Positions 7,295 through 52,986 of a stretch of DNA of 54,487 nucleotides are shown here, piece by piece. The translations under genes and the position numbers were made by a program. The notes beneath the pieces are model-generated. The model searched no databases and was not told the origin of the DNA. It saw only the letters and a list, made by a program, of their open reading frames with translations. Source of the DNA: Parcubacteria group bacterium Gr01-1014_29 (lineage in GTDB: Bacteria; Patescibacteriota; Minisyncoccia; Ryanbacterales; 2-02-FULL-48-12); NCBI GenBank assembly GCA_007376195.1, contig VMFT01000001.1, forward strand, positions 1 to 54,487. Reading direction: 5' to 3'. The stretch's first letter is position 1. Every line of letters begins with the position of its first letter.

Positions 7295-7380
7295 GGAAAT
7301 ACAAAAGTTTTTTCGAAAAGTCTGGCCGAGCGAAGCGAGGAGAACCGAGGACTTTTTGAAAAGCTCTTTTGTATTTCCTT
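7293..7380. repeat. 88-bp long inverted repeat (MITE/REP-like) with central CCGAGCGAAGCGAGG
   Basis: 15-bp perfect ends aaggaaatacaaaag/cttttgtatttcctt plus inner imperfect stem. Confidence 0.85.
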
Positions 7381-7432
7381 GTCCGAGGTAAGATGGGGTT
7401 GAAGTGGTTACAGTTATGCTATACTGACTTAT

Positions 7433-7987
7433 ATGGATTCTCATGACAATCTAGCGGCAGTCATTGAGGCTCTTTTGTTTGTCGCAGGTGAGCCAATACC
7501 CATCGACAAACTTGCGGAGTTAAGCAGCTCAAGCGCTGCCGAAGTACAAAGAGCTGTGCAAAAGCTGCAAGAGGCGGCCTCCATGCGCGGTGGTATTCGT
7601 GTGTTGGAGCATGACCATACGATTTCGCTGGTTACCGCGCCACATCTTGCGCCGTATGTGGAAAAACTTATTAAAGAAGAAATTTTGGGCGACCTTTCAA
7701 AAGCGTCGCTCGAAACACTGACTGTCATTGCCTACCACCATCCCCTATCACGTCCAGAAATAGACTATATCCGTGGCGTTAATTCATCATTTACGCTTCG
7801 TAATTTAATGGCGCGGGGTCTCGTAGAACGCATGGAAGCCCGCCATGGACGAAGCCACACATACCAGCCGACTGTTGAATTCATGAAATATCTTGGACTT
7901 TCATCATTCAGCGATTTGCCTGAATATAATGTCATACGGCGAGATATCGCAAAAGGAATTGAAAAAGTATTGGAAAACGAAGCATAA
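7433..7987 (+). CDS. scpB: Segregation and condensation protein B
   Basis: IEALLFVAGEP, LSKASLETLTVIAY, IDYIRGVNS. Confidence 0.96.
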   Translation: MDSHDNLAAVIEALLFVAGEPIPIDKLAELSSSSAAEVQRAVQKLQEAASMRGGIRVLEHDHTISLVTAPHLAPYVEKLIKEEILGDLSKASLETLTVIAYHHPLSRPEIDYIRGVNSSFTLRNLMARGLVERMEARHGRSHTYQPTVEFMKYLGLSSFSDLPEYNVIRRDIAKGIEKVLENEA

Positions 7988-7994
7988 TAATGCT

Positions 7995-8978
7995 ATGGCA
8001 TTCACCCAGAAAAACATCCTTGTAACCTGTGTGCTGTTGTTGGGAAGCATGATGCTTTTTATTCCCGTCTCGCCGCATCTTTTTCCATCACAACAACCGC
8101 CGCTCTACGCAACACTTCTTGAGTCTCTTAGACCTCTGGCAGAGATATCATCCGGCCAAGAGTCACTGCCATCCCCGCTCGAAGATCCTGAGCTTGTCGA
8201 AGGACTACCCGATCTTGTCGCCTCTGCCGCGCTTGCTTACAATCCGGTCACAAAACATGTCTCATTTCAAAAAAATGCCGATGCTGTGTTCGGCATTGCG
8301 AGCATAACAAAAATTATGACAGCCCTTGTTGCGCTCGAACATGTTGGAAAAGATGATATAGTTCGCGTGAGTACGGATGCAATAGGCACGGAGGGAGCAG
8401 AAGGCGATCTTATGGTAGAGGAACATTTTACGCTTCAAGATCTCATCGCTCTTATGATGACGGGATCCAGCAACGATGCGGCAGCCGCCCTGGCGGAACA
8501 TATCGGCAGTTTGTACGGCGCGGCATCCTTTAAAGAAAGTCAGGATTTTTTTACCGGCATGATGAATGAAAAAGCGCAGGTACTCGGCATGCACCATACT
8601 CGCTATCAAAATCCGACCGGCCTTGATAGAGACGAAGAGGCAGGTATTTTAAGCAACAGCTCAACCGCCCGCGATCTTGCGATTCTTATCGAATATACGC
8701 TGCAATACTATCCCGCAATCTGGGAGGCCAACACACAAGCACTCTCCCTGACTTCACAGGAGGGATTTGTCCACCATGTAGCCACAACACACAACCTTCT
8801 TGAATCAATGCCAGGAATTATAAGCGGAAAGACCGGGTTTACCGATACCGCCGGAGGCGCCCTCATTACGATTGCTGACGTTCCGCTTGGTGAAAAACAC
8901 AGTATTATTATTCTCGGATCCACCTTGCCTGATCGCTTTAGCGATACGGAACGTCTGGTGGAATGGTTGCGCAAATGA
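7995..8978 (+). CDS. D-alanyl-D-alanine carboxypeptidase (peptidase S11)
   Basis: SxxK (SITK), SxN (SSN), NPTGL, KTG motifs; N-terminal TM anchor; ATG 7995. Confidence 0.92.
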   Translation: MAFTQKNILVTCVLLLGSMMLFIPVSPHLFPSQQPPLYATLLESLRPLAEISSGQESLPSPLEDPELVEGLPDLVASAALAYNPVTKHVSFQKNADAVFGIASITKIMTALVALEHVGKDDIVRVSTDAIGTEGAEGDLMVEEHFTLQDLIALMMTGSSNDAAAALAEHIGSLYGAASFKESQDFFTGMMNEKAQVLGMHHTRYQNPTGLDRDEEAGILSNSSTARDLAILIEYTLQYYPAIWEANTQALSLTSQEGFVHHVATTHNLLESMPGIISGKTGFTDTAGGALITIADVPLGEKHSIIILGSTLPDRFSDTERLVEWLRK

Positions 8979-12796: not shown

Positions 12797-13923
12797 AAAT
12801 CGTTCTCACCGGAGGCGGGTCCGGCGGGCATTTTACCCCCATCATTGCGATAGCGCAGTCCTTGCGACGTATCGCCGATGAAGAAAAAATCATTACGCTT
12901 GATCTGATATATATCGCCGATCAACCGTTCAATGAAGAACAACTTCGCGATGAAGATATCCGTTTCATTCATCTTACATCCGGCAAATGGCGCGGCTATT
13001 TCTCACTGAAAAACATAACGGATATTTTTAAGACGTTCTGGGCGCTCCTCCAGGCGTTATTGATTCTTTACAAAGAATTTCCTGACGTAGTGTTCGGCAA
13101 AGGAGGATCGATAAGTTTTCCCGTATTGTTTGCCGCCCGTTTCTACGGCATACCGATTATCATCCACGAATCAGACAGCACACCGGGGCGCGTAAATGCA
13201 TGGGCCGCAAAGTTCGCGGAGCGCATCGCGGTGGCATTTCCGGAAACAGTACAATCATTCCCCGCGGAAAAAACGGCTTATACCGGCAATCCCGTGCGAA
13301 GCAGAATTCTCGGTGGAAACGAAGAAGAAGCGCTCGCGTTATTTTCTCTTGAGCCGCATATCCCGACCATTCTTGTATTGGGCGGATCGCAAGGCGCACA
13401 GCCATTAAATGATATCTTCTTGCAAATTGCCCTGCGGATTACCGAAACGCATCAAATCATACATCAAACGGGAAAAGATAATTATAACGATGTGCTGAAA
13501 CAAGCCTCCGTTATTCTTGAAAAGTCGCCTCACCGCGGCCGGTATCGTATTTTCTCATTCCTTAATGAAGATCGACTCCGCAATGCCGCGCGGATTTCAC
13601 GTCTTGTCATATCGCGCGCGGGAGCAAACACTATTTTTGAGATCGCCGCATGGGGCATTCCAAGCATCCTCGTACCACTGCCACACGCCGCGAGCAACCA
13701 CCAACGGCATAATGCCTATATTTACGCGCGCGCCGGAGCATGCGAAGTCATTGAGGAATCTAACCTCACGCCGACGCTTCTTTTGAATGAAATAAACAAA
13801 CTACTGTCTGATGAAACTATTCAACATACCATGAAGGCGGCGGCACAGAAGTTCAGCCGTATTGACGCGGCGGAAAAAATAGCTCGCGAAATCATAAAAA
13901 TCGGATTGCATGAAGGCAGCTGA
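12793..13923 (+). CDS. murG: Lipid II GlcNAc transferase
   Basis: TGGGSGGH, HESD, TGNPVR, GGSQGA, SRAGA, HQ..NA. Confidence 0.97.
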   Translation: MKIVLTGGGSGGHFTPIIAIAQSLRRIADEEKIITLDLIYIADQPFNEEQLRDEDIRFIHLTSGKWRGYFSLKNITDIFKTFWALLQALLILYKEFPDVVFGKGGSISFPVLFAARFYGIPIIIHESDSTPGRVNAWAAKFAERIAVAFPETVQSFPAEKTAYTGNPVRSRILGGNEEEALALFSLEPHIPTILVLGGSQGAQPLNDIFLQIALRITETHQIIHQTGKDNYNDVLKQASVILEKSPHRGRYRIFSFLNEDRLRNAARISRLVISRAGANTIFEIAAWGIPSILVPLPHAASNHQRHNAYIYARAGACEVIEESNLTPTLLLNEINKLLSDETIQHTMKAAAQKFSRIDAAEKIAREIIKIGLHEGS

Positions 13924-19181: not shown

Positions 19182-19568
19182 TCACAACCCATCGCATCCT
19201 GACGCAATAGTATAGCCGGCTGATTGGGCTGCTTTTTCCGAATCAAACCATATTCTATTTGCTTCCTTTATACGACTTAGGCCGCCACACCACGGATAAT
19301 AATATCGTTTGCCGTTGCGGCTTGCGGCAACCAGTCCCGGAAAACCGCTTGCGTTCATGTATTCCTCGTATAAAAACTCATCACCAAAAGACGAAGATGT
19401 ATCCGTAAACTCAACAGGAGTATGATCTTGCAGTATAAATCCAAGTCGCAACACACCAAATCCCAGCACAACTATAAGAAATATACTCATACCCAAAAAG
19501 GCGAAATCAGCATTCCTCCCCCACCATTCCTTGCTATTTTCTTTCAGTTTTGTTATTATTTGAAACAT
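19182..19568 (-). CDS. Membrane-anchored protein with Ada-like metal-binding C-terminal domain
   Basis: Single TM then ASRNGKRYYYPWC...NRIWF.SEKAAQSAGY...C; ATG 19568. Confidence 0.75.
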   Translation of the reverse strand: MFQIITKLKENSKEWWGRNADFAFLGMSIFLIVVLGFGVLRLGFILQDHTPVEFTDTSSSFGDEFLYEEYMNASGFPGLVAASRNGKRYYYPWCGGLSRIKEANRIWFDSEKAAQSAGYTIASGCDGL

Positions 19569-19579
19569 ATTAGTAATAA

Positions 19580-19646
19580 GGTATCCCGCCTCTGGCGGGA
19601 TGCTCATAAAATATAGTCGTTTTACTCCTTATTTTATGGCACATAC
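19580..19646 (+). repeat. Double-hairpin leader element, copy 1 (overlaps rpmA start)
   Basis: atcccgcc-tct-ggcgggat then gctcataaaata...tattttATGgc; homologous to 39011-39078 and 52918-52986. Confidence 0.85.
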
Positions 19647-19923
19647 AAAATCCGCGGGTTCTACAGCGAATGTCCGCGACTCACAACCAAAATACCGCGG
19701 TATCAAAATCCACGACGGCCAGCGCGCAACAACCGGCACTATTATCGTACGCCAAGTTGGCTCGCGGGTTGTAGCCGGGCCAGGCGTACGTCAAGGCAGA
19801 GATTTTACGCTGTATGCCGCTTGGGATGGCATTGTAAAATTTTCCACGAAACGAAAGCAACACTTTGACGGTTCTATTATGCGAAAGAAGGTAGTAAGTG
19901 TTGTTTTGTTATCCCGCACTTGA
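19636..19923 (+). CDS. rpmA: 50S ribosomal protein L27
   Basis: MAHTKSAGST, RDSQPKYRGIK, IIVRQ, GRDFTLYA. Confidence 0.97.
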   Translation: MAHTKSAGSTANVRDSQPKYRGIKIHDGQRATTGTIIVRQVGSRVVAGPGVRQGRDFTLYAAWDGIVKFSTKRKQHFDGSIMRKKVVSVVLLSRT

Positions 19924-21558
19924 GCCTTTCTTAATCGCCGCCCGCACGAATGCTAGAAACAGCGGATGTGGTTCCAAGAGGCGCGATTGAAATTCCGGAT
20001 GGAATTGAGTGGCGACAAAAAATGGATGATTAGCAAGCTCAATAATTTCTACCAGGTTTCGTTCTGGGTTTACACCCGAAACAACAAGACCTTTTTTTAT
20101 TAAGCGCTCGCGAAGGGCGTTATTTAGTTCATAGCGGTGGCGGTGGCGTTCTGTGATGCGCGCGGTGCTGTAGGCGTCATATGCTTGTGTTCCCTGCTGA
20201 AGGCGGCACGCGTATGATCCCAACCGCATGGAGCCACCCATGTGTTTTGCTGCGATGTTTTCTTTCTGTTCCGGCAATACGTCAATAACTGGATATTTTG
20301 TTTTAGGATCAACTTCTGTGGTGTGCGCGCCTTCCATATGGGCCACATTGCGCGCAAATTCAACCACCGCGAGGTGCATGCCGTAACAGAGACCGAGATA
20401 CGGAATATTGTTTTTCCGGCAGAATTCTATGACGTGGATTTTGCCTTCCACTCCTCGGCTTCCGAAGCCGCCGGGTACTACAATGCCGTCAAAATCGCGT
20501 AAGCCCCACAACGTTTTCGGATCCTGCTCATACTCTTCAGCATTTAACCAGTGTAATTCTGGTACACGTTTTTCCGCCCACGCTGCATGTTTCAGCGCTT
20601 CAATTACAGAAATATAAGAATCAGAGAGTGTGAAAGCGCCTGTTCCGAAATATTTTCCTACGATTCCTATTTTCAGCGTTTTTTTGGCGGTATGCGTCTG
20701 TCGCACACGCTCCTGCCAAGCACTCATGTCTTTCTTTTTGCGTACCGGCATGTGGAATTTCTGCAGTAAGCGGTCTCCCAGCGCTTCTTTTTCAAAATTC
20801 AGAGGAACTTCATATATGGAAGAAACATCGGGGGCTGAAATAATATCATCTTCTCGCATGTTGCAAAATACCGAAACTTTCTGTTTCCGTGGCTTATCCA
20901 AAGGAACCGATGAACGGGCAAGAATAATATCCGGTTGAATTCCGGCAGTATTCAGTGAGCGTACCGCATGTTGCGTTGGTTTCGTCTTCATCTCTCCTAT
21001 CATGTTAGGGATAGGGAAATAACTGACCATCACAAATAATACGTCCTCTGGATGTTGAAGCTTCATCATCCGGCCTGCCTCTAAGAATAATAGGTTTTCA
21101 TACTCTCCTACTGTGCCGCCTATCTCGATCATCACGAAATCGGCCGCGGTTTTTTTGGCTGCAAACTTGATTCGGTGTATGACCTCCTCTGGAATATGCG
21201 GCACCACAGAAACACATTTACCCTGGTACTCAAGATTGCGCTCTTTGGTAATAACGGATAAATAGACAGCGCCCGTGGTTAGGTAGTTATACGCGTGCAT
21301 GTTCTCTCCCAAGAACCGCTCGTAATTACCGATATCCTGGTCGCATTCCATTCCGTCTGTTGTAACAAAAACCTCCCCATGTTCTGTAGGGTTCATGGTT
21401 CCGGCATCCACATTAATATACGGATCAATCTTGAGAGCTGTTACGCAGTATCCGCGCGATTGCAAAATTTTGCCGATGGAAGACGTTGCAATACCCTTGC
21501 CAATGCCGGACATAACTCCCCCCACCACAAAAATATATCGAATAGATTTAGTCACCAC
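19909..21558 (-). CDS. pyrG: CTP synthase
   Basis: GGVMSGIGKG, DPYINVDAGTM, KTKPTQH, GLCYGM, ERHRHRYE, QFHPEF. Confidence 0.98.
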   Translation of the reverse strand: MVTKSIRYIFVVGGVMSGIGKGIATSSIGKILQSRGYCVTALKIDPYINVDAGTMNPTEHGEVFVTTDGMECDQDIGNYERFLGENMHAYNYLTTGAVYLSVITKERNLEYQGKCVSVVPHIPEEVIHRIKFAAKKTAADFVMIEIGGTVGEYENLLFLEAGRMMKLQHPEDVLFVMVSYFPIPNMIGEMKTKPTQHAVRSLNTAGIQPDIILARSSVPLDKPRKQKVSVFCNMREDDIISAPDVSSIYEVPLNFEKEALGDRLLQKFHMPVRKKKDMSAWQERVRQTHTAKKTLKIGIVGKYFGTGAFTLSDSYISVIEALKHAAWAEKRVPELHWLNAEEYEQDPKTLWGLRDFDGIVVPGGFGSRGVEGKIHVIEFCRKNNIPYLGLCYGMHLAVVEFARNVAHMEGAHTTEVDPKTKYPVIDVLPEQKENIAAKHMGGSMRLGSYACRLQQGTQAYDAYSTARITERHRHRYELNNALRERLIKKGLVVSGVNPERNLVEIIELANHPFFVATQFHPEFQSRLLEPHPLFLAFVRAAIKKGSSAG

Positions 21559-21994
21559 GCTCCACAGCTAATAACAGAGAACCATGTGAATCTTGGTCAA
21601 ATTGCAGAACAACGGAATAGGTGCCAAGTGCTTTAATATGATCTTCCAGACGGATGTATTTTTCTAAATCAGCGTATCCTTTTTTGCTAAGCAACTCCGC
21701 AACGTCATGTTCAGTGACAGACCCAAAAAGATGTCCCTCCGGCGTTGCTTTGCGAAAAACCACCAGATGTTCGTTTTTCAAGGCATCAAGTATCTTGAGA
21801 AAATGTTCGCGGTCTTTGGCATCCTGCAGTGCTGCGCGCGCGCGCAGAACTTCAACCTCTTTTATACCAGCAGGCGTGGCAGGTTTTGCAAGCCCCCGCG
21901 GCATGAGAAAATTACGAAAAAACCCTGCGGCAACATCTTTTATGTCACCTACTCCTCCAAGATTATCTACCTGTTTTAGTAAAATGATTTGCAT
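21548..21994 (-). CDS. rplI: 50S ribosomal protein L9
   Basis: MQIILLKQVDNLG, GFFRNFLMP, LFGSVT. Confidence 0.96.
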   Translation of the reverse strand: MQIILLKQVDNLGGVGDIKDVAAGFFRNFLMPRGLAKPATPAGIKEVEVLRARAALQDAKDREHFLKILDALKNEHLVVFRKATPEGHLFGSVTEHDVAELLSKKGYADLEKYIRLEDHIKALGTYSVVLQFDQDSHGSLLLAVERGD

Positions 21995-22068
21995 ACAAAT
22001 TACCTCGCCTGCATCTTCTACCACCCCAGCCCCTCCTCTGTGGTTGCCCCCAACTTACCAGTACCACT

Positions 22069-23280
22069 CTACTCCATGCCGCGCAATAGTTCAATAGCTT
22101 TCTCAAGCTGCGGATCTTTTAGGTCCTCAACATCCTCCGAATCAATCTCAACGACAATGTCCGGTTCAAGCCCTTCGTCCGACAGTGAAACCCCCGATGG
22201 CGTAAGCCACCGCGCAATGGTTACTTTCAGAGATGTTGTATCCGTTACCTCTACCAGTTCCTGCACAGAACCTTTGCCGTAGGTTTTCTTTCCAATTATC
22301 TTGATACCTTTTTGATCCCGGAGCGCGCCGGCAAGAATTTCCGAAGCCGAAGCCGAACCGTTATTTACCAGCACAACCGTCGGAATAGTGGCTAGCGCGT
22401 TGTACCCTTTGCTGCGATGCAGGAGCTCGCTCCCGTCGCCAAACTGCTCCCGCGCGACAATTTTGCCAGACTCCAAAAACCAGCTTGCAATATCTACCGC
22501 CGCTTCCAAAAGCCCGCCGGGGTTATTGCGTACATCCAACACCAACTTAGTACTGCCCGAGCGCGCCATTTCTTCAAGGGCACGACGAAATTCAAGCTGG
22601 GCGTTTTCAGAAAAATTATACAAATGAATTACAAAAATGCCGCCTTCCCGTTTTTCCATCTCAAGTATCGGGATGTGGATAGTATCGCGCGTAATTTTTA
22701 TGACGCGCGTTTCATCTTCGCCCTTCCGTACTATCATAAGCGCGACAATGGTATCCTTTTGGCCCCGAATATGGCGCACTGCCTCCTCAAGCGTAAGATC
22801 GGCTGTTGAGATATCATCAATTTGAAGAATTGTATCCCCTGCCAATAAACCAGCCTCAGCAGCGGGAGACCCGGTAAGCGGCGATATTACAACAAGGACC
22901 CCTTTTCGCATGCCAATTTCTGCCCCTATTCCTTCAAACTTCCCTTGAATTTCAGATTCAAAAAGTTCCTGTTCCACTGGCGGAAAAAATACCGTATAGG
23001 GGTCGTCCAGTGCGCGCACCATGCCGCTTACGGCCCCGTATACCATCTTCTGGCGGTCAAGCTCGCCCGATGCGACGTACTTGTCTTCAAGGATGCTCCA
23101 TGCCTTCCAGAACGGAGAAAAATCGACTTCAGTAGGCTTTGCGGTTTCTTTATTATAGAGCGATGTTACAAGGTCAATTGCAGGCCGTTGGTTGTATCCC
23201 ACATATACGCCAACACCAAAACCGGCCCCCACAACCAGGAGTGCGAGCCCATAGACAGCGAACTTTTTTATAAAAAGCAT
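22069..23280 (-). CDS. Carboxyl-terminal processing protease (S41, PDZ)
   Basis: LDDPYT, GIGAEI, DVRNNPGG, SASASEI, GKGSVQ; ATG 23280. Confidence 0.94.
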   Translation of the reverse strand: MLFIKKFAVYGLALLVVGAGFGVGVYVGYNQRPAIDLVTSLYNKETAKPTEVDFSPFWKAWSILEDKYVASGELDRQKMVYGAVSGMVRALDDPYTVFFPPVEQELFESEIQGKFEGIGAEIGMRKGVLVVISPLTGSPAAEAGLLAGDTILQIDDISTADLTLEEAVRHIRGQKDTIVALMIVRKGEDETRVIKITRDTIHIPILEMEKREGGIFVIHLYNFSENAQLEFRRALEEMARSGSTKLVLDVRNNPGGLLEAAVDIASWFLESGKIVAREQFGDGSELLHRSKGYNALATIPTVVLVNNGSASASEILAGALRDQKGIKIIGKKTYGKGSVQELVEVTDTTSLKVTIARWLTPSGVSLSDEGLEPDIVVEIDSEDVEDLKDPQLEKAIELLRGME

Positions 23281-23365
23281 AGACGTAGTATCGCAAACAA
23301 AAAAGCCCCGGTCAAATCCGGAGCAGCTATTGAATGTCTTGCATAATATACGGTATACTAGATAT

Positions 23366-24271
23366 ATGCCCACTATCCACGGAAAAAATTTCATCTGGAC
23401 GCATCTCAATAAGCCGTCGGAAGAAGATATATTAGAAATTGCAAAAAATCGCGATCTTCATTTTTTGGTCGCAGATGAACTGTTGCACCCTACCTTCCGC
23501 CCCAAGGTGGAACAGTATGGCAGTCATTTGTATCTCATACTTCACTTCCCTAAATACGACGCGCAGGATTCCAACCGTGGCAACGAAATAGATTTTGTCA
23601 TCGGTAAAGATTTTCTCATTACCACCCAATATGCTCCTCTGCCGGCACTCGAAGAATTTGTAACATCCTGTGAAACTGACAAACGAAAAGCAATGCAGTA
23701 TCTCACCAACACAGGTGAGTTACTCTACCATCTTCTTTCACGCCTTTTTGCCTATTCTCTCACGGAACTTGAGAAAATGGACAAAAAAATTTCTGCTATG
23801 GAAAATAGTATATTTCGAGAACAAAATCGAAAATATGTAGAAGATATCTCGCTGCTGAGAAGAGAAATACTGGATTTTCGGCGTATAATTCATCCGCAAC
23901 AGTCGGTCTTGCGATCCTTAGAAGAAGAAGGCAAAGTATTTTTTGGAAAAGACATGTGCTTATACCTCTCCCGTATTATTGGTGATTATCTTCGTATGTG
24001 GCACATTCTTGAAAACCACAAAGAAACCGTGGAAGCGCTCCACGAAACAAATGAATCACTCTTGTCCATACGCACTGCTGAAATTACAAAAAACCTTACC
24101 ATCATGGCGTTCATCGCCTTGCCGCTTACCTTGCTCGCAAACTTATTTGGCATGAATGTGTCCTCTTTCCCTATTGTGGGCAACCCCTATGATTTTTGGA
24201 TTATAGTCGGAATCATGTTTGTTGGCATTCTGGGAATGTTTGTCTTCTTTAAATGGAAAAAGTGGATATAA
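23366..24271 (+). CDS. corA: CorA-family Mg2+/divalent cation transporter
   Basis: RPKVE, GMN motif, two C-terminal TMs, KWKKWI end. Confidence 0.93.
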   Translation: MPTIHGKNFIWTHLNKPSEEDILEIAKNRDLHFLVADELLHPTFRPKVEQYGSHLYLILHFPKYDAQDSNRGNEIDFVIGKDFLITTQYAPLPALEEFVTSCETDKRKAMQYLTNTGELLYHLLSRLFAYSLTELEKMDKKISAMENSIFREQNRKYVEDISLLRREILDFRRIIHPQQSVLRSLEEEGKVFFGKDMCLYLSRIIGDYLRMWHILENHKETVEALHETNESLLSIRTAEITKNLTIMAFIALPLTLLANLFGMNVSSFPIVGNPYDFWIIVGIMFVGILGMFVFFKWKKWI

Positions 24272-24314
24272 AATCAACGAATAACGAATCCAGTACGAAT
24301 CTACGAATACTAAT
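24269..24314 (+). repeat. ACGAAT periodic repeat
   Basis: aaaatcaacgaataacgaatccagtacgaatctacgaata, similar to reverse complement of 52329-52368. Confidence 0.75.
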
Positions 24315-25694
24315 ATGTCTCTCAAACTCTATAACACATTTTCGAGGAAAAAAGAAGTTTTTAAACCCTTGAAAAAGGGTTTTGTTGGATTATATACCTG
24401 CGGCCCCACCGTCTATAACTATGTGCATATTGGAAATCTCCGCACATATATTTTTGAAGATGTTCTGCGACGCACTCTCGAAGCGCATGGATATACGGTA
24501 CAGCATATTATGAACGTTACGGACGTAGATGACAAAACAATAGCGGCTTCAAAACACGCCAAGAAAGATTTGAGTGTGTTTACCAAAGAATATGAAAAAG
24601 CGTTTGGTGATGATAGTGCAAAACTCAATATCCTCGCTCCCACACGGCCGTTTGTGCGCGCCACTGAACATATTCCGGCAATGATTATGCTTATACAAAA
24701 GCTGCTCCGCAAAAACTACGCATACGAAAAAGGCGGCTCGGTATATTTTGACATATCAAAGTTTGCGCCATACGGAAAACTGGCGCATTTGGATAAAAAA
24801 GGATTGAAAGCCGGCGCGCGCATAGATGTTGATGAATACGCAAAAGATGCCGCACAAGACTTTGTTCTTTGGAAGGCGGCAAAAGCAGGAGAACCCTCCT
24901 GGCCTGCGCCATTTGGCTCGGGGCGGCCCGGCTGGCATATTGAATGCTCGGCTATGGCCACCGCCTATCTGAAACAGCCGTTTGATATTCACGCGGGCGG
25001 GGTAGATCTTATATTCCCCCACCACGAGAACGAAATCGCTCAGTCAGAAGCGGCATATAACAAACCATTCGCGCGCTACTGGCTGCACGGGGAGCATCTC
25101 CTCGTAGACGGAGAAAAAATGTCAAAATCGCTCGGTAATACCTATACGCTCCGTGACATCGAAAAAAAAGAGTTTACCCCTCTCTCCCTCCGGTATTTGG
25201 TACTCATGGCGCATTACCGCACAAAATTAAATTTCACATGGCAGTCGCTCAAAAGCGCGCAACAAGCCTACCGAGAACTTGTTGAATTTACAAAAGAATT
25301 GATAGCAGAAAAAAGCGCGGCTCCGATAAAAACTGCTCATTCGTATGCGTCGTATGAAAAAAAATTCTTTGCGGCGCTAGACGATGATCTCAACACGCCA
25401 AAAGCGCTTGCGGTGCTGTGGCAATTTATCCGCGCTTACCACAAGGCAAAAACAACGTACCCAAACGCAGCCTACGCACTCCTGTTAAAATGTGACGCCG
25501 TGCTGGGACTTGAATTTGCGGAAGTAACATTATTAAAAATTCCCCTTGCTATCCAACAGCTTGCCGAAAAACGCGAGCAGTTTCGGACGGAAAAAAAATG
25601 GCAGGAAGCCGACGCTCTGCGCGCCAAAATTGAGAAAATGGGCTGGCAAATTCTAGATACGGATGCCGGCTCCACATTAAAACCACGGATGTGA
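24315..25694 (+). CDS. cysS: Cysteine--tRNA ligase
   Basis: CGPTVY, HIGN, GRPGWHIECS, FPHHENE, KMSKS. Confidence 0.98.
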   Translation: MSLKLYNTFSRKKEVFKPLKKGFVGLYTCGPTVYNYVHIGNLRTYIFEDVLRRTLEAHGYTVQHIMNVTDVDDKTIAASKHAKKDLSVFTKEYEKAFGDDSAKLNILAPTRPFVRATEHIPAMIMLIQKLLRKNYAYEKGGSVYFDISKFAPYGKLAHLDKKGLKAGARIDVDEYAKDAAQDFVLWKAAKAGEPSWPAPFGSGRPGWHIECSAMATAYLKQPFDIHAGGVDLIFPHHENEIAQSEAAYNKPFARYWLHGEHLLVDGEKMSKSLGNTYTLRDIEKKEFTPLSLRYLVLMAHYRTKLNFTWQSLKSAQQAYRELVEFTKELIAEKSAAPIKTAHSYASYEKKFFAALDDDLNTPKALAVLWQFIRAYHKAKTTYPNAAYALLLKCDAVLGLEFAEVTLLKIPLAIQQLAEKREQFRTEKKWQEADALRAKIEKMGWQILDTDAGSTLKPRM

Positions 25695-25845
25695 CTAGCC
25701 GAACTTCGCACACGAGCATAAGCGAGTTGTGAGTAGTTCGGCTCGGCACATCAGTAGCAGTTTCTGTAGACTCCCTGTAATAAAAGCGCCTGTGCCAAGC
25801 CAAGCTATCTTCCGGTGTAACCGGAATAGAGCTCGGCTAGTCACA
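25690..25845. repeat. BIME-like inverted pair of REP-like units
   Basis: Unit TGTGCCRAGCCRARCTA...AGYTCGGCTAGTCACA on minus (25690-25750) and plus (25791-25845); third copy at 40108-40170. Confidence 0.85.
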
Positions 25846-32882: not shown

Positions 32883-32887
32883 ATAAA

Positions 32888-34637: not shown

Positions 34638-34661
34638 TAACAAGAGAATAAAAAGTGCACA

Positions 34662-34691
34662 GATCCGCCCGCAACTAAGGCGGATTTTTTC
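34662..34691 (+). terminator. Rho-independent terminator after glgP
   Basis: atccgcc/ggcggat stem followed by T run. Confidence 0.75.
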
Positions 34692-34769
34692 TAACATAGA
34701 AGATTCGTGATGATAAACCAAAATGATACGATCGTGAACTTTTTATGTCATAGTATTTTTTAAATCATA

Positions 34770-36128
34770 TTATGAATTTCCAAGCCAAAATGGCTCTTGG
34801 CGCACTAACAATTCTTTTTTATGTTCCGGCCTCAACATAATCTCCTCCACCGTCCGTTCCATACGCATAGATTGAGATCCTTTCACCAACACCACATCTC
34901 CCGGGATAATAATATCATCAAGAAATTTTCCAGCTTCCAACGCATTACCAAACTCATGAACCTGCTCGGATGCCAAACCGTGTTCCCGCGCCGCGCGCGC
35001 AATAAATTTAGCTCGCGGGCCTACGGTACAAAGCATGTTTACTATAGGAGCCGCGAGCTCTCCCATAGCCTCATGCGCCTGAATGGTAAACTTGCCGATC
35101 TCAAGCATGTCTCCCAACACCGCAATACGTCTCTTTGCGGGTATATCATGTAACGTATCGAGTGCGGCATGCATAGCGGTGGGAGAAGCATTATACGTAT
35201 CATCCAAAATCAGCGAGCCCTTAATGCCTTCCAAAAGACGCAATCGTCCCGGCAATGGGCGATACAAGGCCGAGAGAGTTGCCGCCGCGTCCAATATATT
35301 GATGCCAAACCAAACACCAACGCCAAGCGCGGCGGCAGCCACATATAGTTGCTGTTTTCCCAGCATCCCCTCCAACCGCAACGGTACTGTAGAACCATTG
35401 TAATCAACCTTGCAACGGATACCGAGCGGCACCTCTCTATCCATCTCGTTACGTACGTTCACTTCGTTCAGTATCTTTGAGCCGGCCACTATCGCATAGT
35501 TTGAAACCTGTACGTCCGATCCCTTTCCAAATCCAAATGTCAATACTTTTCCCCGCGCCTCATTGCGCATATCATATACTACATCATCATCGGCGTTTAA
35601 TAAAACACACCCGTTCTGCGCGGTGCTGCGCGCAAGTTTTCCTTTTTCAAACGCAAGCTCTTTGGGTCCGGAAAAAAATTCCACGTGTACGGGAATCTCG
35701 CCGATTGCTGTTATCACGCTTACTTCCGGCTTTATCAACGAAAGAAATACATCCATATTTCCCGGCCGGTCAACACCTGCTTCCAAAACTAATATATTCG
35801 GATATTTCTTGCGTTCACTGCGTTCAGTATCTTTGACCTGGAACATCACAAAAAAACCCCGCACAATAACGGAGAGCCAGCCGAAAACGGAATTCCATTG
35901 CGTCTCCAAACCCAATACGGTAAGAGGTATGCCAAATTCGCTATTATAGCTTTTTGGGCTTTTTCGAATATCATATTTTGACGCAAGAACGATGGCAACT
36001 GCTTCTTTGGTTGATGTTTTTCCAACACTGCCCGTTATGGCGACGATGCGCGGCTTAAACTTCGCCAGCACTGCCCGCGCCTCCCACGTTAATATGTATA
36101 AAACAATATGCTTTAAAAATAGCTTCAT
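34770..36128 (-). CDS. murF: UDP-MurNAc-tripeptide--D-Ala-D-Ala ligase
   Basis: ITGSVGKTSTKE, NSEFGIPLT, DDTYNASP, LGDMLEIG, VKGSQ; ATG 36128. Confidence 0.93.
   Translation of the reverse strand: MKLFLKHIVLYILTWEARAVLAKFKPRIVAITGSVGKTSTKEAVAIVLASKYDIRKSPKSYNSEFGIPLTVLGLETQWNSVFGWLSVIVRGFFVMFQVKDTERSERKKYPNILVLEAGVDRPGNMDVFLSLIKPEVSVITAIGEIPVHVEFFSGPKELAFEKGKLARSTAQNGCVLLNADDDVVYDMRNEARGKVLTFGFGKGSDVQVSNYAIVAGSKILNEVNVRNEMDREVPLGIRCKVDYNGSTVPLRLEGMLGKQQLYVAAAALGVGVWFGINILDAAATLSALYRPLPGRLRLLEGIKGSLILDDTYNASPTAMHAALDTLHDIPAKRRIAVLGDMLEIGKFTIQAHEAMGELAAPIVNMLCTVGPRAKFIARAAREHGLASEQVHEFGNALEAGKFLDDIIIPGDVVLVKGSQSMRMERTVEEIMLRPEHKKELLVRQEPFWLGNS
35456..35836. repeat. 25-bp direct repeat twice inside murF (35456-35480 and 35812-35836)
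   Basis: cgttcact(t/g)cgttcagtatctttga, 24/25 identical. Confidence 0.9.
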
Positions 36129-36147
36129 TCGTTTAAGTTTTAAGTTA

Positions 36148-37788
36148 CTATCTATCCGGCGGTATTTTATAGTAGGTAATGATAAATTCTGCCAGTTTCC
36201 GGAACGGCTCCGAAAGCGTCTGTGAAGCATATCGCACACCACGCGGCTCTTCAAGGTAGAGCAGTATGAGAAACCGCGGATCAAACGCGGGCGCATACCC
36301 AAAAAATGTATGCAGATACATATCTGAATATCCGCCTGCTGTTTTGTTGGAAATCTGCGCTGTGCCTGTTTTTGCGGCAATGCGATACCGCGGCATGGAA
36401 ACAATTCCTCCGGCTAGGGTTTTATCAACCACATCCGCAAGCATACGCGAGACAATTTCAGTGGTTTCCGTTCGTAAGACTCTTCGGCGTACGGCCGGTA
36501 AAGTTTCCGTACTGACTCCCTTAGTATCTTCAATGCGCTTCACTATATACGGCCTCATGAGTTCCCCGCCGTTCGCGACGGCAGAAAGCGCGGATGCAAG
36601 CCCCAAGGGTGTTACCGCAATGCCCTGCCCGAAAGAAGCTGTCGCGTATTCAACATTGTTGCCTATCTCAAGGTTGCTAAGGTTGCCGGCAACTTCCTGC
36701 CCAAGATCAACACCAGTGCTCTCACCTAAACCAAAGCGTCTCATATAATCATGAAACGCGCGCTTGCCAAGCTGCTGCATAATAAACACGGCGCCCGTAT
36801 TCAGCGACTGATCAAGAATATCATACATGCGCTGCAATCCGCGCCCTTTCCCGTCATAATTGCTTAGAGTTGCGTCCCCTATCTGCACCTGGCCCGCATC
36901 ATAATAGGTTGTTGCCTCTGTGATGGATCGCGCGTCAAGACCGGCAGCCATCGTAAGGGGTTTGACAATAGAACCCATCTCAAAAACTTTTTGCGTAAAC
37001 GGATTGAGAAAAATGTCATAATCCTTCACTTCCTGATACGCGTTCGGATTAAACCCGGGCATACTGTCCATGGCAAGAATAGCGCCTGTTTTCGGCTCAA
37101 GCACTAGTATACCTGCTGATACCGCGTTCCACGTTTCCACTAATTTTGTGCCGAGTTCATGGGCAATGGATTGAATATGAGGATCTATCGTTAAGATAAG
37201 ATCTGACCCATTTTGGGCAAAGCCGGAACGCGCATCGCTTCCGTTTAAGATATCTTCATACTGTTGTTCCAAACCATAACGCCCGCTCCGCCCGATATCG
37301 GAAAACCCAACAAACCCCAACAGGTGGCTTGCCATCGTACCCTGGGGGTAGACACGCTTCTCATCTTTTGAAAGCCAAATTTCAGGCGTAGTGAAATTCG
37401 CTATGTTGGCAGCGGTATCCCGAGAGATGTTTTGCATGAATACTGTATACGTGGTGTCGCGCGCCGAGGCACGCTCCAAAAATGTGTCCTTATCCAGCGG
37501 GAGCAAAGCTACAAATTTTTCGTAAAGAGCGGTAGGATTTTCTATCTGACGCGGATTCCCCTCCAATGTATAAGTACGATGTGTTGTTGCCGCGGGAACC
37601 AAAACACCGTCTTTGTCTTCAAAAAAAATATCCCCGCGGCGCGACTGATCGAGCAATAACGCATTGTGCTGGCGCTCTGCCGTGGCCTGATATTCATCCG
37701 CGTAGGAAACCTGAAGAAAAAAAAGGCGCACTATGACAGTCCCCCCTATCGCAATGAGTACACCTGTCACTACCAGAAGTCGCCTCAT
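36148..37788 (-). CDS. ftsI: Class B penicillin-binding protein FtsI/PBP3
   Basis: RGDIF, RVYPQG, GLE, SIVK, SLN, KTGT; located in mraZ-rsmH-ftsL cluster. Confidence 0.92.
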   Translation of the reverse strand: MRRLLVVTGVLIAIGGTVIVRLFFLQVSYADEYQATAERQHNALLLDQSRRGDIFFEDKDGVLVPAATTHRTYTLEGNPRQIENPTALYEKFVALLPLDKDTFLERASARDTTYTVFMQNISRDTAANIANFTTPEIWLSKDEKRVYPQGTMASHLLGFVGFSDIGRSGRYGLEQQYEDILNGSDARSGFAQNGSDLILTIDPHIQSIAHELGTKLVETWNAVSAGILVLEPKTGAILAMDSMPGFNPNAYQEVKDYDIFLNPFTQKVFEMGSIVKPLTMAAGLDARSITEATTYYDAGQVQIGDATLSNYDGKGRGLQRMYDILDQSLNTGAVFIMQQLGKRAFHDYMRRFGLGESTGVDLGQEVAGNLSNLEIGNNVEYATASFGQGIAVTPLGLASALSAVANGGELMRPYIVKRIEDTKGVSTETLPAVRRRVLRTETTEIVSRMLADVVDKTLAGGIVSMPRYRIAAKTGTAQISNKTAGGYSDMYLHTFFGYAPAFDPRFLILLYLEEPRGVRYASQTLSEPFRKLAEFIITYYKIPPDR

Positions 37789-37841
37789 ATACTGTTTTTC
37801 TATCGGGTAATACTAATTTTGTTGTCTTATGGAGTCCGATT

Positions 37842-38159
37842 TCATAGTGTGATGTCTATAGCAACTGAGGAATCCCGCGCCACAAAATAAACGGGACCCG
37901 CAGTTGATAAATTAAGTTCTCGCGCTTTTTGTTCAAGCCAAGAGCCCACCACTAAATGTGCGCGCTCAACTTCCAATGAACGCACCTCTTCTTTTAGCTG
38001 CAAAATGCGCTGTTCGTCCGATTGTATACCGAACGTACGCATTGCAACCCCATTAATGCTATAAATATAGAGTGCGGCAAACACAAGAAAACACAAACTC
38101 AACAATCCTGCAAAAACGGGGATGAGAATTTTAGAAAACTTGTATGAAATTATTGTCAT
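37842..38159 (-). CDS. ftsL: FtsL-like cell division protein
   Basis: Single TM plus coiled coil ending LEQKARELNL, between rsmH and ftsI. Confidence 0.7.
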   Translation of the reverse strand: MTIISYKFSKILIPVFAGLLSLCFLVFAALYIYSINGVAMRTFGIQSDEQRILQLKEEVRSLEVERAHLVVGSWLEQKARELNLSTAGPVYFVARDSSVAIDITL

Positions 38160-39022
38160 AAACGTTCTGCAACGCGTAATTTTGCGGACCGCGCGCGAAG
38201 ATTGTTTCTCATTTCTTCCGTCGCCGCGCGTACTGGTTTTTTTATAACACGTTTTACAATATCTTCTTGCTCTAAACTGCGAAATATATCTTTTACAATA
38301 CGATCCTCACCCGAATGAAACGATAGCACTGCGATACGGCCTCCCGGCTTGAGCAACCAGACAGCGCGCTCCACTCCCTGGGCAACATGTTTCAATTCAT
38401 CATTAACGCACATGCGTAATGCTTGAAATGTCCGTGTTGCAAAGTGAATTCTGCCCTGGCGATAGCGCCCAGGAACCGCTCTTCGGATAATCTCCACGAG
38501 TTGAAACGTGCGTTCAATGGGAACGCGGTCGCGTTCCCGAACAATTTGACGCGCTATGCTTCGCCCAAACCGCTCTTCTCCTGTGGTTCGCAATAACTCG
38601 CGCAATTCATGTTCCGGCCACTTGTTGATAATGTCGCGGGCCGGAATATCTTTTCGGCTATCAAACCGCATATCCAACGGTTCATCCCGCAAGAATGAAA
38701 ATCCGCGTCCTGATTGCTCTATGTGAAAAGAACTAAAGCCAAGATCAAATATAATACCATCTACATCTGTAAAACCGTGATCCTCTGCAATATGTTGGAT
38801 ATTTGCAAACGTGTCGCAGATAAGTTGAAAGTCTGAAACCTGAAATTTTTCTACAAGTTCACAGTCTCTATCGATGCCAAGGAGTTTTCCTTTTTTCCCG
38901 ATACGTTCCGCAATGGCTTTTGCGTGTCCGCCGCCATTTATGGTGGCATCTATAAACACGTCGCCCGGCCGGGGATTCAGATATTCCAGAACTTCGTTCA
39001 GTAAAACAGGTGTATGTGCCAA
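38156..39022 (-). CDS. rsmH: 16S rRNA C1402 N4-methyltransferase
   Basis: HTPVLL, DATINGGGH, DLGFSS, PLDMR, FQALR, SFHSGEDR, RSAKLR; TTG start. Confidence 0.97.
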   Translation of the reverse strand: MAHTPVLLNEVLEYLNPRPGDVFIDATINGGGHAKAIAERIGKKGKLLGIDRDCELVEKFQVSDFQLICDTFANIQHIAEDHGFTDVDGIIFDLGFSSFHIEQSGRGFSFLRDEPLDMRFDSRKDIPARDIINKWPEHELRELLRTTGEERFGRSIARQIVRERDRVPIERTFQLVEIIRRAVPGRYRQGRIHFATRTFQALRMCVNDELKHVAQGVERAVWLLKPGGRIAVLSFHSGEDRIVKDIFRSLEQEDIVKRVIKKPVRAATEEMRNNLRARSAKLRVAERL

Positions 39023-39078
39023 AAAATAATGAACGTTAGTGAATATATTTTTTGAGCATCCCGAGTGAAGCGAGGGGC
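39011..39078 (-). repeat. Double-hairpin leader element, copy 2 (overlaps rsmH start)
   Basis: gggatgctcaaaaaatatattcactaacgttcattatttttTGGcacat, near-identical to the frr copy. Confidence 0.9.
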
Positions 39079-39086
39079 TACTCTAT

Positions 39087-39521
39087 TTAAAATGCCCCAA
39101 TCTCTCCCAACTTTTCCGCTAAAGCATCGGCATCTTTTTCCATCCGTTTCTTATAAGAACTCCACATCGCCTCATCCCAAATTTCAAGCCGGTTGTATAC
39201 TCCCGTTATGATTACGTGCTGGCGAATGCGCGCGTATGCTTTTAAGTGTTCTGGAATAAGCACTCTTCCCAACGCGTCAAGCGCAACCTCTTCCGCTCCC
39301 GCAAGCATCAACCGCACAAAACCGCGCGTATCCGCCTGCCCTGCCGGCAACGCACTTAACTTCTCCGCGATCTTCTGCCATTCTTCGCGCGGGTACAAAA
39401 ACAACGAATGATCAAGTCCGCGCGTAAGCACTATGCTTCCGCCTAGATCGCGCCGAAACTTCGACGGTACCGACAACCGTTTCTTTGCGTCTATAGAATG
39501 ACGATACTCACCTAAAAACAT
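39087..39521 (-). CDS. mraZ: Division/cell-wall cluster repressor MraZ
   Basis: MFLGEYRHSIDAKKRL, TRGLD, LDALGRVLIP, EIWD. Confidence 0.97.
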   Translation of the reverse strand: MFLGEYRHSIDAKKRLSVPSKFRRDLGGSIVLTRGLDHSLFLYPREEWQKIAEKLSALPAGQADTRGFVRLMLAGAEEVALDALGRVLIPEHLKAYARIRQHVIITGVYNRLEIWDEAMWSSYKKRMEKDADALAEKLGEIGAF

Positions 39522-51197: not shown

Positions 51198-52286
51198 TTA
51201 GAAAATTCTTGCAAGGTCAAAATAGGTAACAACCAGCATCAAAAAAATAAGAGCAACAAAACCTGCTGTATGCGCGAATTGGCTTATGTGAAGAGGAACA
51301 GGAGCGCCGCGCAATTTTTCGATTATGAGAAAAAATATGCGCCCGCCGTCAAGCGCCGGTATTGGCAGGAGATTTAATACGGCAAGATTAATTGAAAGCA
51401 CCGCCACAAGCTGAAGAAGATACACAAATCCGAGCCGAGTCGCCTCGCCCGCGATCTGGGCAATGCCAACCGGTCCTGCAACAGAACCGGTAATATCGGC
51501 ACTGAAGATATTCGTAAAAAATGATGCGAGACCCACCGAAACAGCTTTTGTGGTGTAGATAGTTGTTTTTAGTCCCTCCCACGGGGCACGATACCAAGGG
51601 GTGCGCACAATACCAATTTTCGCCATCGCAATGCCTAAAAGTCCCTCTCCTGCAGGCGCCTCTTCCCTCAAAGCAACGGCAAGATGCTGCTCGCCATCTG
51701 ATCTTGCTATTACAATGGTAAGTTCCTCACCGGCGTGCCTTTTTACAAATTCTTGCACATTCACAACGTCCACAATGCGCATCGTTTCGGACAACGATTC
51801 TAATTCCACTATTGCATCCCCCGGCACCATACCGACTTGGTGAGCTGGAGAATCGGGAACAACTTCCACAACACGCACTACCGCATCGCGCGCACCTTCG
51901 CCACTCCCGACCACGCTGGGAATACCAATCCCATGCCCCAAGGTAAAAAGCACATACGCCAACACCATATTCATCGCGACACCCGCAACCAACACCAAAA
52001 ACCTGTCCCATGCGCTGCGCATTGCGAAATTTCTCGCTGAATCATCCTCCTTCGCTAAAGCTTCGGAGGACGAGTCTTCTCCCCATACGCGCACAAACCC
52101 ACCAAGCGGAAGCAGGTTTATAGAATAAAATGTCTCGCCGTACTGCTTGCCAAAAAGCCGCGGCGGAAACCCGAAACCGAATTCATCCACCCGCATGCCT
52201 TTCCATTTGGCAACTATAAAATGGCCAAATTCATGGCTTAAAACCAACACGGCTATGACTGCTAAAAAAATAAGGAGAGTAAACAT
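51198..52286 (-). CDS. rseP: RIP metalloprotease RseP (M50, PDZ)
   Basis: HEFGH, GFPP, PLGGFV, AGVAMN, GPVGI, NLLPIPALDGG. Confidence 0.96.
   Translation of the reverse strand: MFTLLIFLAVIAVLVLSHEFGHFIVAKWKGMRVDEFGFGFPPRLFGKQYGETFYSINLLPLGGFVRVWGEDSSSEALAKEDDSARNFAMRSAWDRFLVLVAGVAMNMVLAYVLFTLGHGIGIPSVVGSGEGARDAVVRVVEVVPDSPAHQVGMVPGDAIVELESLSETMRIVDVVNVQEFVKRHAGEELTIVIARSDGEQHLAVALREEAPAGEGLLGIAMAKIGIVRTPWYRAPWEGLKTTIYTTKAVSVGLASFFTNIFSADITGSVAGPVGIAQIAGEATRLGFVYLLQLVAVLSINLAVLNLLPIPALDGGRIFFLIIEKLRGAPVPLHISQFAHTAGFVALIFLMLVVTYFDLARIF
52042..52073. repeat. Palindromic element in-frame within rseP
   Basis: Minus strand tcgtcctcc-gaagctttagcgaa-ggaggatga, encodes SSSEALAKED. Confidence 0.8.
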
Positions 52287-52292
52287 ATAAGT

Positions 52293-52368
52293 TAATCAGC
52301 AAATAACGAATCAGTCGCGAATGAACGAATTCGTATATTCGTAATCAATTCGCTATTCGTTGATTTTA
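52293..52368. repeat. ACGAAT/ATTCGT periodic inverted repeat
   Basis: acgaat/gcgaat/acgaat then attcgt/attcgt/attcgc/attcgt; related to 24269-24314. Confidence 0.75.
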
Positions 52369-52920
52369 AACTTCCATTATTTCCTTCTCTTTCTTCTCCC
52401 GCACATTCTCTAATTCTGTGTTAAACCCATCCATCTTTTTCTGCAATTCATCTTTCGCGCGAAATTTCTCATCTTCGGAAATTGTTTTCTCTTTCTCGGC
52501 GGCCTGAACATCCTTCCATGCCTCATCGCGGACTCTGCGCGAACGCACCCGCGCCTCTTCTGCTTTTGCGCTAAGAATCTTCAGAAGATCCTTACGGCGT
52601 TCTTCGGTAAGCTGGGGAAGCGTCAGTCGGATATGATCACCATCTGCAATAGGCACTATATAAAGCGGTGAATTCTCAATTGCTTTGGCAATTGCTTCCA
52701 ACGCCGCCTTATCCCACGGTTGTATCACCAGAGACCGGGCATCAGGCGTAGAAATTGACGCAATATGCTTCAAGGGCGTTTTCGCGCCATAATACTCCAC
52801 TTCCAAATCTTCCAGAAGCGCTGGCGAGGCACGCCCCGTCCGTAAAGAAGCAATCTCACTACGAAACCATTCGCGGATTGAGGCAAACTCGTTTTCCATT
52901 TTTTTTAAAACCTGTTGCAT
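52366..52920 (-). CDS. frr: Ribosome recycling factor
   Basis: LRTGRASP, VEYYG, IQPWD, PQLTEERR, KEKEIM. Confidence 0.97.
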   Translation of the reverse strand: MQQVLKKMENEFASIREWFRSEIASLRTGRASPALLEDLEVEYYGAKTPLKHIASISTPDARSLVIQPWDKAALEAIAKAIENSPLYIVPIADGDHIRLTLPQLTEERRKDLLKILSAKAEEARVRSRRVRDEAWKDVQAAEKEKTISEDEKFRAKDELQKKMDGFNTELENVREKKEKEIMEV

Positions 52921-52986
52921 GTGCCAAAAAATAATGAGCGTTAGCGAATATATTTTTTGAGCATCCCGTCGTTAGGCGGGATGCCT
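52918..52986 (-). repeat. Double-hairpin leader element, copy 3 (abuts frr start)
   Basis: gcatcccgcctaacgacgggatgctcaaaaaatatattcgctaacgctcattattttttggcacATG. Confidence 0.9.

Follow-up and report, generated by a model that had tools for sequence, protein, structure and literature searches.

Small hairpin repeats that are read as single-stranded DNA (ssDNA) are already known from the repetitive extragenic palindromic (REP) sequences and their REP-associated tyrosine transposases (RAYT), from NTS/Ssn and from the ends of IS200/IS605 elements, and palindromic inserts that stay in frame within genes are reported from Rickettsia in a part of PMC10969869. According to passages of PMC8266576, the REPs of Escherichia coli are read as folded ssDNA on one strand, a conserved 2x2 mismatch midway along the stem is required by TnpA-REP, and HUH enzymes distinguish the strands via loops, mismatches and bulged bases. 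SsnA, a 94-aa GIY-YIG protein, is described in the pertinent passages of PMC11893778 (Chenal et al. 2025) as binding the NTS hairpin solely as ssDNA, on one strand, and not as RNA. Mini-hairpins of the consensus GCGNAGC or GCGNNAGC, the GTTA loop included, are characterised in sections of PMC13037366 as extraordinarily stable in DNA, above RNA, and as occurring at phage replication origins and N4 promoters. Here we analyse a hairpin of the form NN-GA-NN-loop-NN-GA-NN in a 54,487-nt stretch of DNA from Parcubacteria group bacterium Gr01-1014_29 (contig VMFT01000001.1). This whole stretch is called the window below; it is contig C9 of a 1.08-Mb Patescibacteria genome with 46% GC and 52 contigs, which we code G000.

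We propose, with a probability of roughly 0.6, that the terminal hairpins of certain small, non-autonomous mobile DNA elements have this hairpin as their conserved core, and that it is a folded-ssDNA end signal, patchy but widespread in this class of Patescibacteria. One family of these hairpins, A, would act as the element end: inverted pairs, with their GA strands directed inward, enclose cargo, and single copies sit together with a second hairpin at start codons. In the single-stranded state the GA strand would fold into an unusually stable mini-hairpin, its unpaired purines would mark the strand, and a structure-reading enzyme would bind and cut or join at this folded strand.

Conserved structure with invariants on one strand

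A match to the strict motif required two NN-GA-NN halves around a loop of 3-4 nt and four Watson-Crick pairs. The window contains 9 such matches compared with 3.24 +/- 1.89 expected from 300 dinucleotide shuffles, of which 3 reached 9 or more, and the genome contains 107 vs about 66 expected (15 shuffles; ratio 1.5-1.8). The original prediction had proposed this comparison with shuffled controls, and the motif indeed stands above expectation on both scales. For the other non-Watson-Crick central dinucleotides the ratios of genome to shuffles lie between 0.73 and 1.1, with the exception of GG (1.6, on a single strand), which leaves GA as the sole step of this kind that is enriched on both strands. 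Five of the nine window matches (7326, 19629, 25712, 39029, 52934) are members of repeat families; the remaining four (13862, 14881, 33523, 35773) are coding sequences without further copies, roughly as many as chance would give. The excess of the strict motif is carried by the repeats, and three sequences recur in the genome, namely CCGAGCGAAGCGAGG six times, ATGAGCGTTAGCGAAT five times and AGGAGTGATAACGACT three times. All the instances that had been listed are present where they were placed (Table 1; the murF cores lie at 35458-35470 and 35814-35826 and the rseP core at 52049-52066, all on the minus strand).

Three of the window instances, with cores at 19615, 39029 and 52934, belong to family A, a hairpin of about 44 nt with 18 copies in G000 by profile search and 19 by R1, a covariance model made from family A members. 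The GA strand reads T-N-C-C, an A-tract, A-K, GA, two bases, the loop, two bases, GA, M-T, a bulged A, a T-tract and G-A-G-N'-A. This gives an A/T-rich outer stem, the bulged A, two base pairs, a tandem G·A/A·G step, a distal stem and a loop of the type G...A; a GC-rich hairpin, which we call hairpin 2, usually comes after it on the GA strand. The structure is conserved. Among 22 sequences both sides change in 10 of the 13 pairs, and 91.9% are paired vs 78.8% after shuffling and 40-53% after sliding. In an alignment of the 77 R1 matches (73 distinct, from about 30 genomes) fitted to the model, 12 of the 13 pairs covary and 96.5% of the cells are paired, compared with 76.4% for shuffled columns and 37-58% for slid partners.

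The invariant bases, in turn, are distributed asymmetrically between the strands. Among the 73 distinct sequences GA forms the 3' step in 72 and the 5' step in 62, with AA in the other one and 11, respectively, a conservation that the search itself partly favours, and the bulged A is kept in 72. Short loops end with A in 66 of 70 cases and begin with G in 49 of 70, and T50 (72/73), A51 (72/73), T53 (68/73) and T56 (63/73) are conserved as well. The cores correspond to GCGNAGC or GCGNNAGC in 24 of the 73 sequences and to NN-G(N1-2)A-NN in 48. In three relatives (G140, G083 and G098) the 2-bp inner stem is swapped for a longer stem or an insert (7-9 bp in G140 and G083), and GA...GA is kept. The stem of the window copies, ATGAGC/GCGAAT, is what we take to be the same arrangement as in the decamer of early nuclear magnetic resonance work on tandem sheared G·A pairs. 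The expectation that the pairs covary around a fixed GA thus holds within family A, with the comparison across families made by eye, and the freely covarying stems agree with the idea that structure and not sequence is under selection. The combination of unpaired invariant purines on one strand with freely covarying stems points to a folded single strand that would be read by its shape plus a few bases.

The same mini-hairpin was predicted to lie at the heart of differing repeats, and this is true in G000, where families A, B and D and the palindrome around 7326 share a GA-type core. Position 7326 is the centre of a palindrome of about 90 nt (pal7295), which has copies in contigs C34 and C17 and partial copies in C24 and C50. 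The core GA-GC-GAA-GC-GA is common to families A and B and to pal7295, and the core of family D is GA-GC-GTA-GC-GA. Family D has 13 copies in G000, in which constant outer arms (start TGTGACTAGCCGAGCT, end GGCACA) hold interchangeable central hairpins; six of the 13 centres are of the GA type, and among the others are GC stems that carry a GTA or GAA loop. The family is thus modular in design. A function of family D as a stop-codon element was considered and rejected, as just 2 of the 13 copies end a long open reading frame (ORF). Mosaic arrays of modules are found in contig C22 at 3140-3340.

Insertion sites and cargo-enclosing pairs

The start codon is the typical target of the single copies. 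It is touched by 14 of the 19 family A copies of G000, with the GA strand as the template strand and with most copies between two same-strand genes; the outer end of the element lies against the host gene. Besides frr, rsmH and rpmA in the window, the hosts, as read from their first codons, are a release factor, L33, FtsE, GlmS, UvrC, an FtsA-like protein, NusG, DnaG, L16, L35 and a lipoprotein-like ORF. Of the remaining five copies, one directly follows a tRNA end (C43), one lies upstream of a GIY-YIG gene (C23), one is a tandem second copy (C45) and two are in a 175-nt repeat (C11). In G079, which belongs to another family of the class, we counted 41 family A copies; 9 of the 20 copies that were fetched abut start codons, and their hosts, again read from first codons, include EF-G, S18, L17, L13 and MetRS. 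Altogether the R1 search detected family A in 32 of 151 related genomes (27 of 121 genera), with 1-41 copies each.

Two further repeats were seen during this survey. The repeat of about 175 nt on C11 (locus L098, 14-190 and 1447-1623) has a terminator-like hairpin at its end and contains a variant of hairpin A. One copy is situated upstream of a gene that, by reading, putatively resembles an NYN/LabA-type nuclease, and genome G005 has just 60 nt around the hairpin in common with this repeat. Additionally, GCCTAA (29 times) and AGCCTA (27 times) occur within 35 nt upstream of predicted G000 starts, which suggests another repeat near starts.

The family A copies at frr and rsmH and the modules in murF and rseP are insertions. 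In five relatives the 5' spacer of frr is plain and without family A; G002 has about 75 nt there and the other four have 9-25 nt, and G000 has a 65-nt insert at this place. At rsmH none of the five relatives has family A; in G003 and G006 the gene starts ATG-GCA-CAT, 4-5 nt past the mraZ stop. By eye, the mraZ-rsmH spacer of G004 (L091) contains a different GA-type mini-hairpin with a hairpin-2-like stem, in the other order and missed by R1, and the spacer of G002 contains another palindrome. These different palindromes indicate that the site was hit repeatedly. The two 27-nt inserts of murF are one module in two reading frames, and both are absent in five of five orthologues. The extra residues of rseP are likewise absent in five of five orthologues, and the rseP module has three further copies in the genome. 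A conserved leader or operator was dropped as the main explanation given the empty sites in relatives and the patchy copy numbers. For annotation the insertions have the consequence that start codons are shifted (rsmH now begins with TTG) and that peptide segments are added.

Cargo is found between inverted pairs. Such pairs of hairpin A were detected at five loci (L041, L042, L043, L045 and L095), each with its GA strands directed inward, starting from the outer ends; the single family A copies of G000 have one full end each. The pair encloses an intact tRNA-Gly(UCC) in L043 and L045 and an intact tRNA-Ala(UGC) in L041. In all three loci the flanks outside the pair hold a resident tRNA of matching type, cut into two halves within the anticodon. 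The junctions CTT-C[TCCCG...CGGGA]C-AA and TTT-G[TCCCG...CGGGA]C-AT place the insertion between anticodon bases 2 and 3, and no target-site duplication is present at the three split anticodons. A different cargo is seen on contig C7 of G079, where an inverted hairpin A pair and an inner inverted repeat surround a GIY-YIG gene of about 85 aa, beside a RAYT-like gene of 243 aa. On contig C23 of G000, a GIY-YIG gene is preceded on its sense strand, at a distance of about 35 nt, by hairpin A and a hairpin 2.

Small GIY-YIG genes were also noted in or beside split tRNA genes at four places in G000 (C39:~33500-34100, C8:~7700-8300, C22:~13300-13750 and C23:~2500-3150). These loci have duplicated tRNA pieces and their own GC-rich hairpins on both sides.

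The features of the window are collected in Table 1. Pfam supports the gene names murF, rseP (peptidase M50), frr (RRF), rsmH (MraW), mraZ (MraZ), rpmA (Ribosomal_L27), cysS and scpA. Next to rpmA, a 141-aa ORF (19182-19607, minus strand) without a Pfam match has its ATG at 19607 inside hairpin 2 of the rpmA element, about 30 nt from the divergent rpmA, and its true start is uncertain.

Table 1. Hairpin elements and coding inserts of the window, with positions counted from its first nucleotide.
Feature	Position	Strand	Remarks
Long palindromic element after scpA	7295..7385	+	B-type core CC-GA-GC-GAA-GC-GA-GG at 7326-7340
Hairpin 2 of the rpmA copy	19583..19601	-	ATCCCGCC-loop-GGCGGGAT
Family A hairpin	19600..19642	-	core 19615-19629; outer arm contains the rpmA start (19636, +)
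Family D element after cysS	25690..25765	+	GA core 25712-25727; TGA stop of cysS in the first bases of the element
Second family D copy, inverted relative to the first	25771..25845	-	centre not of GA type
Second 27-nt murF insert, same module in the other frame	35454..35480	-	adds SKILNEVNV
27-nt in-frame murF insert	35811..35837	-	adds VKDTERSER; contains T-GA-AC-GCA-GT-GA-A
Family A hairpin fused to the rsmH start	39016..39059	+	core 39029-39044; gene begins TTG-GCA-CAT, the TTG within the T-tract of the element
Hairpin 2 of family-B type	39056..39080	+	core 39061-39075, CC-GA-GT-GAA-GC-GA-GG with one T.G pair
rseP module CTCC-GAA-GC-TTTA-GC-GAA-GGAG	52045..52070	-	5 extra residues (SSEAL) in the rseP protein
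Family A hairpin	52921..52964	+	core 52934-52949; R1 70.4 bits; outer end adjoins the frr start codon (52918-52920, gene on -)
Hairpin 2, GC-rich, after family A at frr	52961..52984	+	resembles NTS/SRM hairpins by eye; no match to their search pattern

Candidate partner enzymes and competing explanations

The original prediction suggested that HUH/RAYT or GIY-YIG genes might be flanked by the motif. G000 does contain three RAYT-like HUH (Y1_Tnp) genes, but none of them is flanked by the motif and one is flanked by a different palindrome. This is the gene on C39 (225 aa; L001, G000:C39:12359-15625), which has four flanking copies of a perfect palindrome with a 14-bp stem that is unrelated to the GA hairpin (at ~940-975, 1258-1292, 1975-2008 and 2098-2132 within L001), so that gene and palindromes look like a separate REPtron-like unit. 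The gene on C4 is flanked by another inverted repeat and the gene on C43 by none; the RAYT-like gene of locus L003 is bracketed by a 20-nt inverted repeat. Across the related genomes, Y1_Tnp genes are present in 27 of the 32 genomes with hairpin A vs 68 of the 119 without it (odds ratio 4.05, Fisher p = 0.004, for related genomes that are not independent).

For GIY-YIG the picture is mixed. G000 has seven small ORFs of this type, 67-92 aa long, with PF01541 matches above cut-off and with UPF0213 proteins as the nearest solved structures. The motif flanks the gene on both sides at C7 of G079 and on one side at C23 of G000, but the other six small G000 genes have other hairpins. The published SRM pattern gives 7 matches in G000 vs 2.5 in shuffles, and three of them are NTS-like. 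Near-identical versions of the Neisseria NTS/SRM consensus are located at C28:~28915(-), C11:~5281(+) and C30:~10982(+), none beside a GIY-YIG gene. Overall, a small GIY-YIG nuclease of the Ssn/UPF0213-like kind is our leading candidate for the partner, at somewhat less than an even chance, followed by a RAYT-like HUH enzyme as a possible, more tentative choice; that the partner is something else appears unlikely.

Several points weigh against the proposal of a folded-ssDNA end signal. The link to any partner enzyme is putative. The R1 scan of the three RAYT-like loci of G000 gave no hairpin A, none of the SRM-pattern matches in G000 is a copy of hairpin A or hairpin 2, and GIY-YIG genes occur in 30 of the 32 genomes with hairpin A vs 110 of the 119 without (p = 1; 140 of 151 overall), so that their presence, being near-universal, is uninformative as a discriminator. 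On the structural side, GA conservation is partly a product of R1, which rewards GA. The 15 G.T and 12 A.C non-canonical pairs of family A favour neither strand, and in the nearest-neighbour DNA model the GA strand of family A is ahead of the other strand by just 0.4-1.3 kcal/mol. This model does not fold the B core either; the stability of mini-hairpins is missed by standard parameters, as parts of PMC13037366 state. The outer sequence does not resemble that of REPs: hairpin A ends with T-N-C-C-N (TGCCA, TCCCG, TTCCA), and no GTAG/CGTC is present in two alignments, A1 and A2.

Two further observations concern recent movement. By first-codon reading, rpmI and glmS are preceded by family A in both G000 and G002, with differing inner pairs, which indicates that some copies are old or retained. 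In four groundwater metagenome runs, the contigs over 19400-39300 showed no copy-absent variant at the elements, and the joints listed for them all lie elsewhere, which says little either way; the X1 contigs break inside the repeat at 39016-39059, and one X3 contig covers 38920-39190 unchanged. Finally, beside tRNA and tmRNA (transfer-messenger RNA) genes the GA strand is the transcribed strand, and the element could act as RNA there.

This last point leads to the alternative that survives best, in which the element functions as RNA and the GA-strand transcript is a terminator, a processing site, a stabiliser or a protein-binding internal loop, chiefly at tRNA and tmRNA genes. We regard it as improbable. 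It would account for the hairpin A copies found directly 3' of tmRNA (L033, G140 C3) and of tRNAs (L053, G140 C1, G000 C43), which are on the sense strand and continue into hairpin 2 and a T-rich stretch, and for those 12-43 nt upstream of tRNA-Gly on the same strand. Moreover, a scan rates hairpin 2 as terminator-like when read on the GA strand, RNA folding favours the GA strand (-28.5 vs -21.9 kcal/mol), and a hairpin A variant is part of the terminated C11 repeat of about 175 nt. However, in 14 of the 19 G000 copies the GA form lies on the strand that serves as template for the adjacent gene, mostly between same-strand genes, and any one transcript could hold the GA form for one end of an inverted pair only. 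The copies in murF and rseP are translated, the common loops GTTA and GATA are not GNRA loops, and the covarying pairs do not fit a kink-turn, as they leave no 3-nt bulge beside the GA step. The Rfam scan gave a tRNA as the sole match in the window and no match at the C11 and G005 loci. We favour DNA over RNA because both cassette ends carry the GA form, on opposite strands, because, for the majority of start-codon copies, transcription of the flanking genes does not cover the strand that holds it, and because the loops fit the mini-hairpin rule given for DNA in sections of PMC13037366.

A second alternative, if anything a shade less probable, is a portable expression signal. Here the 3' arm of the GA strand, T-A(bulged)-T-R-W-T, would resemble a -10 box facing the cargo, and the other strand would provide TANNNT 6-8 nt before the host ATG and thereby a leaderless mRNA. 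The conservation of T50, A51, T53 and T56 fits this picture, as does the position of the GA-strand box, which precedes both the GIY-YIG ATG and the cargo tRNA-Gly by about 35-45 nt. In G000 a leaderless signature is indeed visible: TANNNT starts at -12 in 76 of 527 ATG genes vs about 14 at other offsets, and the Shine-Dalgarno signal is weak. [quoted passage not shown] Against this stand the host-ATG boxes, which lie at -13 or -11 and hence off the -12 peak of the genome, and a consensus promoter scan that did not call a promoter in the GA element. The idea also leaves the covarying stem, the GA steps, the G...A loops and the copies inside genes unexplained, and a promoter may be a side effect that makes insertions tolerable. 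As a by-product, it could plausibly explain why insertions on essential start codons are tolerated, but not the hairpin itself.

A mere coincidence of NN-GA-NN among unrelated palindromes and coding sequences, to which the four unique coding matches and a genome count near expectation without the repeat families might point, is very improbable and is largely refuted for the repeat copies, given that GA alone among the non-Watson-Crick steps is enriched on both strands, that families A, B and pal7295 share the core and D has nearly the same, and that GA is fixed through 12 covarying pairs and the replacement of the distal stem.

Returning to the end signal, the predicted ssDNA function is supported in so far as the one-strand purine invariants fit a folded single strand and the elements behave as mobile DNA; the more specific functions that had been suggested did not fare as well. 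The GA strand has no replication-strand bias, with 9 negative vs 10 positive local GC skews, a result that gives no backing to a role in priming or on the lagging strand, and nothing speaks for an uptake or protection tag.

Significance and comparison with known systems

In summary, the hairpin joins three kinds of insertion in one system: start-codon elements, cassettes that split a tRNA gene and bring a spare copy, and in-frame hairpins in the essential genes murF and rseP. The tandem G·A step, the bulged A and the G...A loop, with the rest free to covary, provide a testable structural signature for very small mobile elements of Patescibacteria. One may go further and speculate that hairpin A defines a new class of cassette transposon moving via folded ssDNA, in which a stand-alone GIY-YIG nuclease of about 85 aa would read the tandem sheared G·A step and the bulged A, with duplication-free insertion into anticodon loops (with a spare tRNA) and start codons (with a leaderless promoter) and 27-nt in-frame mini-forms in essential genes. 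We consider this extended picture doubtful. If the GIY-YIG reading were true, it would represent a transposition or homing system based on an Ssn-type enzyme. With either a small GIY-YIG or a RAYT-like partner, the Ssn/NTS or the REP/RAYT picture would be extended to a new substrate type and a new phylum, and the enzyme would be a candidate sequence-independent, structure-specific tool for ssDNA. In the titles and abstracts of the literature, supplementary files aside, we found no family A, no tandem G·A plus bulged-A signature of this kind, no tRNA-replacing cassettes and no 27-nt coding inserts in Patescibacteria.

Integron attC sites are selected for structure over sequence, fold as ssDNA, mark the strand with extrahelical bases and are attached to gene cassettes. 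Hairpin A differs from them in that its ends form inverted pairs, are much shorter and have other targets. In comparison with REP/RAYT, both are short imperfect intergenic palindromes, and hairpin A too has an internal mismatch and bulge, here the tandem GA/GA and the bulged A. However, hairpin A has just 19 copies, flanks no RAYT gene in G000 and forms inverted pairs that carry cargo, and it sits at start codons, in anticodon loops and inside genes, whereas REPs sit at gene 3' ends.

The likeness to Rickettsia palindromic elements (RPEs) and MITEs lies in palindromic repeats that occur both between genes and, in frame, in housekeeping genes (twice in murF, and in rseP). The length of RPEs is about 150 bp, in contrast to the 27 nt of the murF inserts, and no sequence similarity is expected; as for MITEs, inverted hairpin A pairs are present, but no target-site duplication is seen at the tRNA sites. 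With Ssn/NTS the system has in common nuclease genes of about 85-95 aa that, at some loci, have hairpin repeats on one or both sides, and hairpin 2 resembles NTS by eye. SsnA, however, reads sequence plus shape, whereas the stems of hairpin A are free to covary. For NTS, no role as a transposon end is described, and the small G000 proteins, which match UPF0213 structures, are at most putative members of the Ssn clade (cd10448). Finally, the DNA mini-hairpins have their counterpart in the cores GCGAAGC, GCGTAGC, GCGTTAGC and GCGTAAGC of families A, B and D, with GCGAAGC as the B core and a sheared G-A pair closing the loop. Family A differs in its many A-T inner pairs and in adding a tandem G·A step and a long A/T stem below.

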